Part shown: piece by piece, positions 49,139 through 59,102 of the stretch
Layout: every line of letters starts with the position of its first letter
Numbering within the stretch: the first letter of the stretch is position 1
NCBI GenBank assembly: GCA_964016885.1
Contig: OZ024744.1
Coordinates: forward strand, 35,898,001 to 35,962,000
Source of the DNA: Eledone cirrhosa
Taxonomy: Eukaryota
Direction: 5' to 3'
Length of the DNA: 64,000 nucleotides
Notes under the pieces: model-generated
The model's database searches: none
What the model was told of the DNA's origin: nothing
What the model saw: only the letters and a program-made list of their open reading frames with translations
Position numbers and translations under genes: made by a program

Positions 49139-50888
49139 TAAAAACAAATAACGAAACGAAATTAAATTTCGTTTCGTTTGTAACTCACTTTTGTATGACT
49201 GACGCTTAAACAATTAAGTTAAAAATGTACATCCACATATGTATACTGAAATACTAGTATGCATATGAATACACACACGTGTACATATGTAGATGTACCG
49301 AGTTTTCACTGGTCACTTTACTGTGAGTGTCCAGCTATTCCGTATGTAGACACACAGACAAACCGGTTCTTAGAGTCATACTGGTTTTTGAGGAAACACC
49401 TTTCCTCTATTCTCCAGAAAGCCAGACAAGGAATATTGGACTAGTTTCGATGTTGTTACATCTCATCAGCAATATTTACCTATCTTCCGGCTTCTCTAGA
49501 GAATCGTGAAAGCACATATCGTTATATGCTTTTTCTATGAAAATTAGTAGTGGGCAGACCAATTTGCATAGAGCGTGAGTACGTACCGGTTCAACGGAGA
49601 CGATAAAAACAAATAACGAAACGAAATTAAATTTCGTTTCGTTTGTAACTCACTTTTGTATGACTGACGCTTAAACAATTAAGTTAAAAATGTACATCCA
49701 CATATGTATACTGAAATACTAGTATGCATATGAATACACACACGTGTACATATGTAGATGTACCGAGTTTTCACTGGTCACTTTACTGTGAGTGTCCAGC
49801 TATTCCGTATGTAGACACACAGACAAACCGGTTCTTAGAGTCATACTGGTTTTTGAGGAAACACCTTTCCTCTATTCTCCAGAAAGCCAGACAAGGAATA
49901 TTGGACTAGTTTCGATGTTGTTACATCTCATCAGCAATATTTACCTATCTTCCGGCTTCTCTAGAGAATCGTGAAAGCACATATCGTTATATGCTTTTTC
50001 TATGAAAATTAGTAGTGGGCAGACCAATTTGCATAGAGCGTGAGTACGTACCGGTTCAACGGAGACGATAAAAACAAATAACGAAACGAAATTAAATTTC
50101 GTTTCGTTTGTAACTCACTTTTGTATGACTGACGCTTAAACAATTAAGTTAAAAATGTACATCCACATATGTATACTGAAATACTAGTATGCATATGAAT
50201 ACACACACGTGTACATATGTAGATGTACCGAGTTTTCACTGGTCACTTTACTGTGAGTGTCCAGCTATTCCGTATGTAGACACACAGACAAACCGGTTCT
50301 TAGAGTCATACTGGTTTTTGAGGAAACACCTTTCCTCTATTCTCCAGAAAGCCAGACAAGGAATATTGGACTAGTTTCGATGTTGTTACATCTCATCAGC
50401 AATATTTACCTATCTTCCGGCTTCTCTAGAGAATCGTGAAAGCACATATCGTTATATGCTTTTTCTATGAAAATTAGTAGTGGGCAGACCAATTTGCATA
50501 GAGCGTGAGTACGTACCGGTTCAACGGAGACGATAAAAACAAATAACGAAACGAAATTAAATTTCGTTTCGTTTGTAACTCACTTTTGTATGACTGACGC
50601 TTAAACAATTAAGTTAAAAAAGATGTAACAAAAGAGATGTAACAACATCGAAACTAGTCCAATATTCCTTGTCTGGCTTTCTGGAGAATAGAGGAAAGGT
50701 GTTTCCTCAAAAACCAGTATGACTCTAAGAACCGGTTTGTCTGTGTGTCTACATACGGAATAGCTGGACACTCACAGTAAAGTGACCAGTGAAAACTCGG
50801 TACATCTACATATGTACACGTGTGTGTATTCATATGCATACTAGTATTTCAGTATACATATGTGGATGTACATTTTTAACTTAATTGT
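49139..50888 (-). mobile_element. Retrozyme-like tandem array 1: 3.2 x 465 bp plus inverted 268 bp arm
   Basis: Identical units at 465 bp spacing; inversion junction at 50620/50621; (TA)n flanks. Confidence 0.92.
49432..49476 (-). ncRNA. Type I HHR, GUC site (repeated at 49897-49941, 50362-50406)
   Basis: aatattg-CTGATGA-gatgt aaca acatc-GAAA-CTAG-TC-caatatt. Confidence 0.95.
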
Positions 50889-50900
50889 ATATATATATAT

Positions 50901-51232
50901 ATTTATTAAAATAACAGATTAAAGTTTAAGCAAAGAATCGCTGCTTTCACCCTTTTTTCCCGTTCTTAGCCAGCGAACGTTTTCACGAACCAAAGTATCG
51001 TCTTCCTGTCTTCCTCCGGTTGCAACGTTTTTTGAAATTACCAGTTCTGCGTTTACAGATTGACTTTGTTAGTTTTAGAAGATCCCGTTAAGGGTGAAAG
51101 CAGCGATTCTTTGCTTAAACTTTAATCTGTTATTTTAATAAATATTTGCTCTACGGTTCTTATATATTTGATATATATTTATCCTTATCGAGCCTTCTTT
51201 TGATTTTAGTCTTCAAATATATTATTATTACT
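50901..51232. mobile_element. Inverted-arm element, CAGAAGA-HHR family (HHR at 51071-51121, core TAGAAGA)
   Basis: 50901-50954 inverted to ~51089-51143; ~90 nt tail. Confidence 0.75.
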
Positions 51233-55309: not shown

Positions 55310-55495
55310 AATTCATCTGAGGAAAGTGCGTTATGTATGAATTTAAATGGTATATATTTAAATTGTTTATATCATTTATAATATGAATTATGTATAATTA
55401 ATATAAATTTTATATGAATTACACATAACACTGTGTCAGTAATTCTATGGTTAATGCTGAGTTTCATAATGCCCTTGAAACATATGTAAAGAATT
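55310..55495 (+). ncRNA. HHR with very long stem II insertion
   Basis: aattcat-CTGAGGA-aagtgcgttatg...(~130 nt)...cataatgccctt-GAAA-CATATG-TA-aagaatt. Confidence 0.7.
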
Positions 55496-56122
55496 AAAAA
55501 TGAGTTAAAAATAATTTTTCCATTTATATATTTCATTTTCTAGTGTTAACCTAATATATTCCTTCCATATACTGTACCGATTGTGTTGTTATTTCTGTCT
55601 ACTTTTTAAATACACACACACACACACACACACACACACACACACACACACACACACACACACACACACACACACACACACACACACACACACACACACA
55701 CACACACACACACACACACACACACACACACACACACACACACATACACACACACACACATATATATATATATATATATACTATATTTAGAGATATAAAC
55801 TCAAACAGTCTTCTACAATTAATTAGCTCAAAGAAAGAAGCATTTCTGAGCCGTGAAATACAGGCAAACTGTATTAATCTAATTAGTATTTTTTCAATCT
55901 AGCTAACTTGGTCATTTACAAAACAAACGCTTATATGTTTATATTAGTGTTTATCATATATTAATTTATATTAACTTGTATATATATATATATATATATA
56001 TATATATATATGTGTGTGTGTGTGTGTGTGTGTGTGTGTGTGTGTGTGTGTGTGTGTGTGTGTATTAATAAGTATACACTCAATAAATATATACAAGAAT
56101 ATACATATATATATATATATAT

Positions 56123-59102
56123 AATTAAGTTAAAAATGTACATCCACATATGTATACTGAAATACTAGTATGCATATGAATACACACACGTATACATATG
56201 TAGATGTACCGATTTTTTCACTGGTCACTTTACTGTGAGTGACCAGCTATTCTGTATGTAAACACACAGACAAACCGGTTTTTAGAGTCATACTGGTTTT
56301 TGAGGAAACACCTTTCCTCTATTCTCCAGAAAGCCAGACAAGGAATATTGAACTAGTTTCGTTGTTGTTACAACTCATCAGCAATATTTACCTATCTTCC
56401 GGCCTTTCTAGAGAATCGTAAAAGCACATATCGTTATATGCTTTTTCTTTGAAAATTAGTAGTGGGCAGACTAATTTGCATAGAGCGTGAGTACGTACCG
56501 GTTCAACGGAGACGATAAAAACAAATAACGAAACGAAATTAAATTTCGTTTCGTTTGTAACTCACTTTCGTATGACTGACGCTTAAACAATTAAGTTAAA
56601 AATGTACATCCACATATGTATACTGAAATACTAGTATGCATATGAATACACACACGTATACATATGTAGATGTACCGATTTTTTCACTGGTCACTTTACT
56701 GTGAGTGACCAGCTATTCTGTATGTAAACACACAGACAAACCGGTTTTTAGTTTCGTTTCGTTATTTGTTTTTATCGTCTCCGTTGAACCGGTACGTACT
56801 CACGCTCTATGCAAATTAGTCTGCCCACTACTAATTTTCAAAGAAAAAGCATATAACGATATGTGCTTTTACGATTCTCTAGAAAGGCCGGAAGATAGGT
56901 AAATATTGCTGATGAGTTGTAACAACAACGAAACTAGTTCAATATTCCTTGTCTGGCTTTCTGGAGAATAGAGGAAAGGTGTTTCCTCAAAAACCAGTAT
57001 GACTCTAAAAACCGGTTTGTCTGTGTGTTTACATACAGAATAGCTGGTCACTCACAGTAAAGTGACCAGTGAAAAAATCGGTACATCTACATATGTATAC
57101 GTGTGTGTATTCATATGCATACTAGTATTTCAGTATACATATGTGGATGTACATTTTTAACTTAATTGTTTAAGCGTCAGTCATACGAAAGTGAGTTACA
57201 AACGAAACGAAATTTAATTTCGTTTCGTTATTTGTTTTTATCGTCTCCGTTGAACCGGTACGTACTCACGCTCTATGCAAATTAGTCTGCCCACTACTAA
57301 TTTTCAAAGAAAAAGCATATAACGATATGTGCTTTTACGATTCTCTAGAAAGGCCGGAAGATAGGTAAATATTGCTGATGAGTTGTAACAACAACGAAAC
57401 TAGTTCAATATTCCTTGTCTGGCTTTCTGGAGAATAGAGGAAAGGTGTTTCCTCAAAAACCAGTATGACTCTAAAAACCGGTTTGTCTGTGTGTTTACAT
57501 ACAGAATAGCTGGTCACTCACAGTAAAGTGACCAGTGAAAAAATCGGTACATCTACATATGTATACGTGTGTGTATTCATATGCATACTAGTATTTCAGT
57601 ATACATATGTGGATGTACATTTTTAACTTAATTGTTTAAGCGTCAGTCATACGAAAGTGAGTTACAAACGAAACGAAATTTAATTTCGTTTCGTTATTTG
57701 TTTTTATCGTCTCCGTTGAACCGGTACGTACTCACGCTCTATGCAAATTAGTCTGCCCACTACTAATTTTCAAAGAAAAAGCATATAACGATATGTGCTT
57801 TTACGATTCTCTAGAAAGGCCGGAAGATAGGTAAATATTGCTGATGAGTTGTAACAACAACGAAACTAGTTCAATATTCCTTGTCTGGCTTTCTGGAGAA
57901 TAGAGGAAAGGTGTTTCCTCAAAAACCAGTATGACTCTAAAAACCGGTTTGTCTGTGTGTTTACATACAGAATAGCTGGTCACTCACAGTAAAGTGACCA
58001 GTGAAAAAATCGGTACATCTACATATGTATACGTGTGTGTATTCATATGCATACTAGTATTTCAGTATACATATGTGGATGTACATTTTTAACTTAATTG
58101 TTTAAGCGTCAGTCATACGAAAGTGAGTTACAAACGAAACGAAATTTAATTTCGTTTCGTTATTTGTTTTTATCGTCTCCGTTGAACCGGTACGTACTCA
58201 CGCTCTATGCAAATTAGTCTGCCCACTACTAATTTTCAAAGAAAAAGCATATAACGATATGTGCTTTTACGATTCTCTAGAAAGGCCGGAAGATAGGTAA
58301 ATATTGCTGATGAGTTGTAACAACAACGAAACTAGTTCAATATTCCTTGTCTGGCTTTCTGGAGAATAGAGGAAAGGTGTTTCCTCAAAAACCAGTATGA
58401 CTCTAAAAACCGGTTTGTCTGTGTGTTTACATACAGAATAGCTGGTCACTCACAGTAAAGTGACCAGTGAAAAAATCGGTACATCTACATATGTATACGT
58501 GTGTGTATTCATATGCATACTAGTATTTCAGTATACATATGTGGATGTACATTTTTAACTTAATTGTTTAAGCGTCAGTCATACGAAAGTGAGTTACAAA
58601 CGAAACGAAATTTAATTTCGTTTCGTTATTTGTTTTTATCGTCTCCGTTGAACCGGTACGTACTCACGCTCTATGCAAATTAGTCTGCCCACTACTAATT
58701 TTCAAAGAAAAAGCATATAACGATATGTGCTTTTACGATTCTCTAGAAAGGCCGGAAGATAGGTAAATATTGCTGATGAGTTGTAACAACAACGAAACTA
58801 GTTCAATATTCCTTGTCTGGCTTTCTGGAGAATAGAGGAAAGGTGTTTCCTCAAAAACCAGTATGACTCTAAAAACCGGTTTGTCTGTGTGTTTACATAC
58901 AGAATAGCTGGTCACTCACAGTAAAGTGACCAGTGAAAAAATCGGTACATCTACATATGTATACGTGTGTGTATTCATATGCATACTAGTATTTCAGTAT
59001 ACATATGTGGATGTACATTTTTAACTTAATTGTTTAAGCGTCAGTCATACGAAAGTGAGTTACAAACGAAACGAAATTTAATTTCGTTTCGTTATTTGTT
59101 TT
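56123..59102 (+). mobile_element. Retrozyme-like tandem array 2: inverted arm of 1.35 units (56123-56749) plus 5.0 x 466 bp
   Basis: Identical units at 466 bp spacing; ~3-4% diverged from array 1; (TA)n flanks. Confidence 0.92.
56902..56946 (+). ncRNA. Type I HHR, GUU site (also 57368, 57834, 58300, 58766 plus; 56344-56388 minus)
   Basis: aatattg-CTGATGA-gttgt aaca acaac-GAAA-CTAG-TT-caatatt. Confidence 0.93.

Follow-up and report, generated by a model that had tools for sequence, protein, structure and literature searches.

A probable non-LTR retrozyme family of Eledone cirrhosa with two-armed insertions of the Penelope-like type

Anatomy of the elements in the window

The window, i.e. the whole stretch of 64,000 nt analysed here, contains two elements composed of tandem units. 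According to TRF, the array at 49138-50620 has a period of 465 nt (3.2 copies, 100 %) and the one at 56747-59105 a period of 466 nt (5.1 copies, 99 %). The units of elements 1 and 2 differ by 15 substitutions and one indel, and inside either element there is no variable site except one base at the W2 junction. This agrees with the first-pass annotation, which had described two such arrays with units alike within each and about 16 differences between them. Its reading of each array as one reverse-transcription product has to be replaced by two opposed cDNA arms, apparently primed at two fixed sites. Each element consists of two arms arranged head-to-head, the second inverted and passed over in the first-pass annotation, as an insertion in (TA)n, and the outer ends of both arms of both elements run into (TA)n. 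One arm has its 3' end at unit position 345 (site A) and the other at 271/276 (site B); the array ends that had earlier been put some 230-300 nt away from the cleavage site correspond to these fixed positions, B lying at 228/233 nt from it and A at 302 nt.

8727..14571, no strand: two-armed copy of an autonomous Penelope-like element (PLE) family, lying in (TA)n, its ends offset and each arm 5'-truncated
30837..31229, plus: fragment of RZ2, a second, homologous retrozyme family
49072..49140, no strand: (TA)n target tract, A end of element 1
49138..50620, minus (sense of the hammerhead ribozyme, HHR): A arm of element 1 with 3.2 units (465 nt each), its 3' end falling at unit position 345 (site A)
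49432-49476, 49897-49941, 50362-50406, minus: element 1 HHRs
49439/49438 and equivalents, minus: predicted cleavage after GUC, element 1
50621..50633, no strand: 13-nt insertion at the head-to-head junction of element 1, resembling a copy of the B-arm start
50634..50891, plus: inverted B arm of element 1, covering unit positions 18-276, its 3' end falling at site B (276), then short (TA)n
56105..56122, no strand: (TA)n, B end of element 2
56123..56751, minus: B arm of element 2 with 1.35 units, its 3' end falling at unit position 271 (site B)
56344-56388, minus: single HHR of the element 2 B arm
56747-56751: arm junction of element 2, 5-nt microhomology between A and B arms
56747..59105, plus: A arm of element 2 with 5.06 units (466 nt each), its 3' end falling at unit position 345
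56902-56946, 57368-57412, 57834-57878, 58300-58344, 58766-58810, plus: element 2 A-arm HHRs (GUU)
57275..57282, plus: ATGCAAAT motif, unit 379-386
59032..59105, plus: 'tail', unit 272-345, between sites B and A
59065-59093, plus: perfect hairpin inside the element 2 tail
59104..59124, no strand: (TA)n, A end of element 2

The offset between sites A and B corresponds to the 'tail' of PLEs; its sequence is present in every unit and is terminal on the A arm only. The CTGGTCACT/AGTGACCAG hairpin seen earlier is perfect in element 2 but imperfect in element 1. The RZ2 unit of about 428 nt is about 60 % identical to the 466-nt family, likewise tandem, and RZ2 ends at sites homologous to A and B.

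Hammerhead and fold of the unit

Each unit carries a type I hammerhead with a 7-bp stem I, CTGATGA, a 5-bp stem II, GAAA and the palindrome ACTAGT. The motif parts are thus as first described, and the palindrome gives a stem III of 2 bp only, with a 2-nt loop. Element 1 has GUC as its cleavage triplet and element 2 has GUU, and the cut is predicted between unit positions 43 and 44. In a model search, suggested earlier as a check, the Hammerhead_HH9 model matched with 37.7 bits (E 5.5e-8), under its gathering score of 52, and Rfam at gathering score gave no hammerhead match for the unit. The hammerhead pattern has at least 9,467 matches in the genome and none in the reversed control, and the family is therefore not due to chance.

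No ORF was found in the unit across the approximately 140 loci mapped, in line with its earlier description as non-coding; in its short tandem form, its low GC and its lack of an ORF and an LTR it agrees with the class of non-LTR retrozymes. The predicted fold of the circular monomer is 66-67 % paired, with z of -9 to -14 (40 shuffles). The antisense strand also folds strongly (z -7.9), so the fold alone does not prove an RNA phase. Seven of 157 predicted pairs were changed on both sides, compared to 0-1 in slid controls, and a stem II pair is swapped between A-U and U-A (33 vs 35 loci). Predicted stem I reaches about 30 bp across the unit junction, and the unit is therefore structurally self-contained. 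The ATGCAAAT motif, which we take to be an octamer, was kept in 62 of 65 loci and also in RZ2, and judged by sequence it is a possible candidate for an internal promoter element. Newt satellite 2 has an snRNA-type promoter with an octamer.

The metazoan non-LTR retrozymes already described (PMC7229834, on coral, mussel and axolotl; bioRxiv 10.64898/2026.07.22.740005) likewise have non-coding units some hundreds of nt long, in tandem and with low GC, one type I HHR per unit, a highly self-paired circle (here predicted), and thousands of copies in genomes which, as here, also hold PLEs. The units of PMC7229834 are smaller (170-400 nt, compared to 466 nt), and newt and axolotl satellite 2 retrozymes also have a short palindromic stem III, with dimer cleavage expected (PMC7229834), unlike the 2 bp and 2-nt loop found here. 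Cleavage and circular RNA were demonstrated for the retrozymes of those two sources, whereas the present family is known from sequence. In vitro, no cleavage was seen for 8 of 9 dimers of predicted retrozymes (bioRxiv 10.64898/2026.07.22.740005). In the text considered, neither account describes insertions with two inverted arms, a pair of fixed 3' ends or a preference for (TA)n, and both leave the mobilising mechanism open.

Ends, junctions and arrays across the genome

Exact matches to the A end followed by (TA) numbered 2,002 genome-wide (about 2,000 A-ends; control 0). Among inverted junctions with both outer ends classifiable, 82 of 83 were A+B and one was B+B. The first batch gave 61 A+B out of 70, with no AA or BB and nine with one end unclassified, and at loci chosen regardless of their ends all 40 classifiable junctions were A+B; a B-anchored batch (n=26) gave 21 A+B, one B+B and four unclassified. 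The exceptions were L207 (B+B) and the complex loci L204 and L179, with B at both outer ends. An apparent A+A pair in coordinate lists was actually two separate elements, L110 and L111. (TA)n was present on both flanks in 75 of 81 cases and on at least one in 79, and apparent duplications of about 8-13 nt were seen at a few targets that are not pure TA (L031, L041, L047, L197).

Both arms of one element carry the same variant: arm-to-arm divergence was 0.6 % (median), compared to 3.7 % to other loci (64 loci). Like the fixed ends, the A+B pairing and the (TA)n targeting, this is read directly from the sequence. Of 59 loci, 49 had an A arm and 52 a B arm crossing a cleavage site; the arms extend past the hammerhead sites to variable length (median about 1.3 units). 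The arms were joined through 1-9 nt of microhomology (30 junctions), bluntly (4), with insertions (24) or with a longer overlap (1). A arms that end at site B, as expected if a linear RNA is copied by classical twin priming, were not significantly in excess (10 of 59 vs 6.0, p 0.07), nor was there an excess of both arms stopping at one position, as in collision or fold-back. An excess of B-arm 5' ends at unit 44-80, noticed post hoc among 16 windows tested, failed replication and was dropped. Parts of the retrozyme unit also occur at low depth in three other organisms.

Dispersal at thousands of loci, the fixed ends and a structure with compensatory changes support an RNA-spread family and not a DNA satellite, as the first-pass annotation had held. 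It is very improbable that the family is a DNA-level element, be it a satellite, a foldback element or a rolling-circle DNA transposon, or an artefact of assembly. DNA transposons also show inverted arms and (TA)n targeting, and DNA-level duplication occurs in some arrays, but the ends lie at different internal positions of a circularly permuted unit with a random inner junction, the ribozyme is conserved with covariation, and the flanks are unique and on many chromosomes. Against an artefact, contigs of run X1 also break at window position 57241 into (AT)n; X1 may be the source sample, so these contigs are not independent evidence.

Dimer or trimer periods occur in some arrays, as does duplication at the DNA level. 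The earlier proposal of one circRNA variant per array fits L113 (20 segments, both arms) and L038 (15), which have no variable site, but not L047, in which two unit types alternate in both arms, L062, with the unit order abcabc, or a 31-unit array with block duplications; L100 and L095_96 are mosaic or block-duplicated. Only 6 of 32 elements with at least three units were fully homogeneous (11 of 32 with at most one variable site).

It is conceivable, with appreciable but minority weight, that the same PLE-driven insertion has as its template a linear multimer read through from an array already in place, with a hammerhead that is dispensable or slow and long arrays that arise by later unequal exchange. 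This is a variant of our best explanation minus the circle. The heterodimer pattern common to both arms of L047 and the trimer/dimer periods and block duplications would fit it, as would the ORF lengths and spacings shared by neighbours in a long PLE array and the use of unprocessed RNA as the main substrate of the Poseidon protein PAc (PMC11167929). The post hoc excess of B-arm 5' ends mentioned above, which lies immediately 3' of the cleavage site (12 of 59 vs 4.8 expected), would fit it too, but a pre-planned retest did not replicate this (3 of 21 vs 1.7, p 0.24). Moreover, linear copying only shortens arrays, whereas the young L113, L038 and L192 are long and uniform in both inverted arms; nearly all loci differ from one another in variant (only 3 of 69 match another locus exactly), and the hammerhead is retained with compensatory change.

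Penelope-like elements and the proposed mechanism

The PLE family in the window is autonomous, young and 4.1 kb long, and encodes an RT with, at the C terminus, a GIY-YIG-like domain; Pfam gave no family in the full-length protein and a weak RVT_1 match in a truncated one. All nine elements with both ends seen had one short and one long end, with an offset ('tail') of about 45-58 nt. The HHR is followed by about 230-300 nt and then the two ends, a spacing like that of the retrozyme. The family also forms two-armed full tandems, a long array has ORF lengths and spacings common to neighbouring units, and young PLEs with intact ORFs are present in the genome. It is an example of the kind of machinery and not a proven partner. 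Homology to the retrozyme unit was found neither at the termini of this family nor at 40 GIY-YIG loci (the top of 150 listed among 10,594 candidates), and a variant HHR pattern (27 matches, 20 loci extracted) gave no homologous pLTR at the 10 loci examined. A seeming PLE-retrozyme chimera, L130, was read instead as an inverted copy of adjoining DNA across a (TA)n tract.

The retrozyme unit, lacking an RT / GIY-YIG ORF, is PLE-like in behaviour and not an autonomous PLE. EN+ PLEs (PMC8557442; Poseidon PAc, PMC11167929) show the same partial or full tandems, inverted 5'-truncated copy, tail frequently on one end only, AT-rich or microsatellite targets, HHR upstream of the tail and two internal start sites. 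Unlike them, the retrozyme has no ORF, its tail of 69-74 nt lies outside any coding region, and it has no homology to the PLE families sampled. In vitro, PAc cleaves both strands and extends them, beginning at two positions inside the RNA that mark the limits of the tail; uncleaved RNA is its main substrate, and its start sites are alike on both strands (PMC11167929), in contrast to the near-strict pairing of one A with one B here.

It is improbable that the units are amplified terminal repeats (pLTR plus tail) of some autonomous PLE, i.e. cis-copied truncated products with no independent replicon. The spacing from HHR to the two ends equals that of the local PLE, Xenopus retrozymes are related to pLTRs (bioRxiv 10.64898/2026.07.22.740005), and the PLE families surveyed are only part of those in the genome. 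This reading is opposed by the perfect head-to-tail 466-nt repeats without ORF at the mapped loci, the self-contained unit with its long stem I, and the same tandem form in RZ2. Ancient descent of the unit from a pLTR is possible.

In L1 twin priming, two primers at one target break use one RNA and give an inverted 5' segment. The retrozyme would resemble this in having two primers on one RNA, but it has no poly(A), its two priming positions are fixed and internal, and its arms cover overlapping stretches of template and stop at points unrelated to each other.

The first-pass suggestion of PLE machinery is supported by the insertion footprint, i.e. the one-A-one-B junctions and the (TA)n targets. 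We consider it highly probable that the family is a non-autonomous non-LTR retrozyme that a PLE mobilises in trans with its RT/GIY-YIG protein; we read it as a new, cephalopod-type retrozyme, most likely inserted through two PLE priming events on one RNA. The arms crossing the cleavage site, the junction signatures and the same footprint in an autonomous PLE are seen in the sequence; cleavage, circularisation, trans-mobilisation and partner identity we infer. Evidence against this explanation is that no PLE with unit-like termini was present among the families sampled and that the tail is 69-74 nt, compared to 30-40 nt in published work. The exceptions to A+B pairing, the substrate and start sites of PAc and the failure of most predicted retrozyme dimers to cleave also weigh against it.

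Tandem units would first be transcribed and cut by the hammerhead once per unit, probably as a dimer because stem III is palindromic and 2 bp long, and part of the RNA would be circularised. The PLE protein would bind the structured tail region and make a double-strand cut, staggered by a short distance, in (TA)n or AT-rich DNA. The two 3'-OH ends would prime cDNA internally on the same RNA, one at 345 and one at 271/276, and both cDNAs would run across hammerhead sites to variable length. Their ends would be joined head-to-head by end-joining (microhomology or short templated insertions), and later DNA-level duplication may expand some arrays. The template is likely circular, judging from the sequence. 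Within this explanation a monomer circle is somewhat favoured as the usual template, an uncut or partly cut multimer comes second with a fair minority of the weight, and end-to-end jumping between linear monomers is unlikely. The unit orders of L047, L062, L100 and L095_96 are evidence against the monomer circle as sole template.

We tentatively suggest, at rather less than even confidence, that an asymmetric PLE dimer primes both strands of one (TA)n break from two sites on one circular RNA, which is circled twice. If so, retrozyme circles would be real transposition intermediates, the 4.1-kb PLE would also move via an HHR-made circle, and PLE pseudo-LTRs, inversions and one-sided tails would be explained by one model.

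Animal retrozymes have been assumed to be moved by PLEs via circular RNA, the published basis, in the portions of the literature considered, being co-occurrence, shared hammerheads and pLTR similarity. In the present family the PLE footprint is resolved to the base, both mapped start sites are conserved in the 60 %-identical RZ2, and a PLE is probably its mover. Together with the young PLEs with intact ORFs, this makes it readily possible to test in vitro whether mobilisation occurs in trans and whether the template is a circle or linear. The near-strict A+B pairing constrains how the PLE protein primes the two strands, which the in vitro study (PMC11167929) left unresolved. A small, protein-free RNA element, predicted to cut itself, has spread to thousands of sites in the Eledone cirrhosa genome.

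Two-armed structure of the elements in the window

The first-pass annotation had described two tandem arrays of a 465/466-nt hammerhead ribozyme (HHR) unit, each as one rolling-circle reverse-transcription product of a circular RNA. The tandem units stand, but the arrays are not complete elements: each is one arm of a two-armed insertion (elements 1 and 2) whose arms meet 5' to 5'. With window position 56897 as unit position 1, the 3' limits lie at 345 for A arms (site A) and at 271 or 276 for B arms (site B), and the predicted cut falls between 43 and 44.

Features of the window, including relatives discussed below
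8727-14571: two-armed copy of a Penelope-like element (PLE), with RT and C-terminal GIY-YIG-like motifs assigned by our own motif reading
30837-31229: fragment of the sister retrozyme family RZ2
49138-50620, sense on minus: element 1 A arm, array of the 465-nt unit (TRF), (TA)n at the outer side
13 nt between the arms: element 1 junction insert
50634-50891, sense on plus: element 1 B arm, then (TA)n
56123-56751, minus: element 2 B arm, (TA)n at the outer side
56747-59105, plus: element 2 A arm, array of the 466-nt unit (TRF), 5-nt microhomology with the B arm, then (TA)n

As had been noted for the arrays, units within either element are without differences, here with one junction base excepted, and the roughly 16 differences reported between arrays were counted as 15 substitutions and one indel. 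The type I hammerhead claimed for every unit was confirmed: in both elements a 7-bp stem I continuing beyond a bulge, CUGAUGA, a 5-bp stem II, GAAA, and a 2-bp stem III from the palindromic ACUAGU, with the triplet GUC in element 1 and GUU in element 2. An Rfam search of the window gave no hammerhead match at the gathering score; Hammerhead_HH9 matched below it (E 5.5e-8).

The neighbourhood also holds a 1.5-kb (AT)n tract (53550-55052), broken about 20 times by one 14-nt motif, and a tRNA match of 48.7 bits (51435-51505, minus), which may be a SINE head or a pseudogene. Several LINE-like copies, now decayed, match RVT_1 and zf-RVT at 36839-47278 and 60206-63985, and unrelated 48-nt and 74-nt minisatellites lie at 33219-33777 and 34684-34928.

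Genome-wide end pairing and the Penelope-like footprint

In the 3.0-Gb genome the HHR pattern had 9,467 matches and the exact A end with (TA) directly after it 2,002, compared to none for either control; the B end had 619, counted on the forward strand, on which there is no overlap. A first set of 102 stretches, two of them overlapping and one insertion present in duplicate (loci L128 and L129), contained 70 inverted junctions: 61 A+B, no A+A, no B+B and nine with one end unclassified. Forty of the 61 came from loci picked irrespective of their ends, while the other 21, picked via the A end, could not have revealed B+B. Among 26 junctions from 40 further loci picked via the B end, 21 were A+B, four unclassified (two of these, L179 and L204, with B at both outer ends) and one B+B, this sole case (L207) having been deliberately picked from the list. 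Both flanks were (TA)n in 75 of 81 A+B elements (L129 left out), and targets not purely TA showed apparent duplications of about 8-13 nt. Many seemingly one-armed copies carry a second arm of just 8-40 nt.

Four loci (L059, L068, L099 and L130) show duplicated and sometimes inverted flanking DNA across the (TA)n target, which suggests that synthesis folded back at self-complementary TA ends as the element was inserted. At L196 the two arms, which both begin at unit position 57, are separated by about 65 nt of unrelated sequence.

The window's PLE family has a similar architecture. All nine of its elements with both ends visible, including one pieced together from two stretches of a single array, have a short end on one arm and, on the other, an end lying 45-58 nt further out, both in (TA)n. 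Published PLE features include inverted 5'-truncated copies, a (TA)n preference and a tail of 30-40 bp, often at one end only (PMC8557442), and a PLE protein has been shown to cleave AT-rich DNA on both strands and to extend each of them, starting at two internal RNA sites which bound the tail (PMC11167929). The retrozyme insertions therefore bear the PLE footprint. No homology of the unit itself was found to the window's PLE or to 40 other GIY-YIG loci.

The best database match of a PLE protein from this genome was from Octopus vulgaris (73 % identity), which points to an octopod host. The window's PLE family is autonomous and, judging by its sequences, very young: 125 scored copies, out of 19,460 candidates, were 99-100 % identical, many had open frames some 1,217 codons long and some formed full 4.15-kb tandems. 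One two-armed array (G000:C28:42.00-42.07 Mb) has about 15 full units. The family's hammerhead-like motif is atypical in appearance. At L197 a retrozyme lies in a short TA stretch just downstream of a hammerhead-like motif belonging to a PLE, and a duplication of about 8-12 nt accompanies it. Short inverted elements at 50897-51232 and 59125-59290, in the same (TA)n tracts as elements 1 and 2 and with one arm 75-90 nt longer, are probably the truncated termini of further PLE-type families.

The template of the two arms

Arms within an element differed by a median of 0.6 %, compared to 3.7 % to the arms of other loci (64 loci), and both appear to have been copied from the same template. Of 59 elements, counted without L129 and L147 (the latter mis-mapped), 49 had an A arm and 52 a B arm that crosses at least one cleavage site, and at least two were crossed in 21 and 18, respectively. 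A cleaved linear monomer could not have been the usual template, precise jumps of the reverse transcriptase aside. Median arm lengths were 582 nt (A) and 600 nt (B), the stop points of the two arms were unrelated, and the junctions comprised 30 with 1-9 nt of microhomology, four blunt, 24 with insertions and one with a longer overlap. In a post hoc comparison B-arm stops were overrepresented immediately 3' of the cut, an effect that failed to replicate.

For the usual template we lean slightly towards a monomer circle. Variation was zero over both inverted arms of L113 (20 segments) and L038 (15), and only 3 of 69 loci were identical to another locus, so that a step multiplying one variant is needed; both observations count for a circular template. 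As the only route, however, a monomer circle is opposed by full uniformity in just 6 of 32 elements with at least three units, by two unit types alternating in both arms of L047, by L062, which reads abcabc, and by a 31-unit array with recurrent variants in duplicated blocks. Accordingly, long arrays are in part DNA-level products, and some templates contain at least two differing units.

RNA structure and relation to known retrozymes

The circularly closed monomer was predicted to fold with z of -13.8 and -8.9, the hammerhead being formed and stem I continuing over the junction between units; for the antisense strand z was -7.9 (40 shuffles). Across 72 loci, seven duplicate or mis-mapped ones having been removed, two-sided change in at least two loci was seen for 7 of the 157 predicted pairs, compared to 0-1 in slid controls. 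These paired changes support selection on the RNA structure and are not a probability, since the loci are related and the structure itself was taken from one of them.

RZ2 has a unit of about 428 nt, 60 % identical to the main family, and the copies examined end in (TA)n at homologous positions. The motif ATGCAAAT is common to both families and kept in 62 of 65 main-family loci. RZ2 also occurs, with the same two end sites, at L038, L165, L208 and L226, and additional, unrelated hammerhead variants were seen.

Non-LTR retrozymes were defined, with cleavage and circles shown in coral, mussel and axolotl, in PMC7229834, where PLEs are a strong candidate for the machinery; octopus, cephalopod, inverted and microsatellite are words absent from its main text. 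A later preprint ties retrozymes to the pseudo-LTRs of PLEs by phylogeny and leaves mobilisation open in its main text, its supplements being where insertion structure may be treated (bioRxiv 10.64898/2026.07.22.740005). Titles and openings of the papers found by literature search, with few subscription papers among them, contained neither this footprint in a retrozyme nor a cephalopod retrozyme. The feature is real and represents a new non-LTR retrozyme; its insertion through twin internal priming of the PLE type on a single RNA is highly likely, with good genomic evidence.
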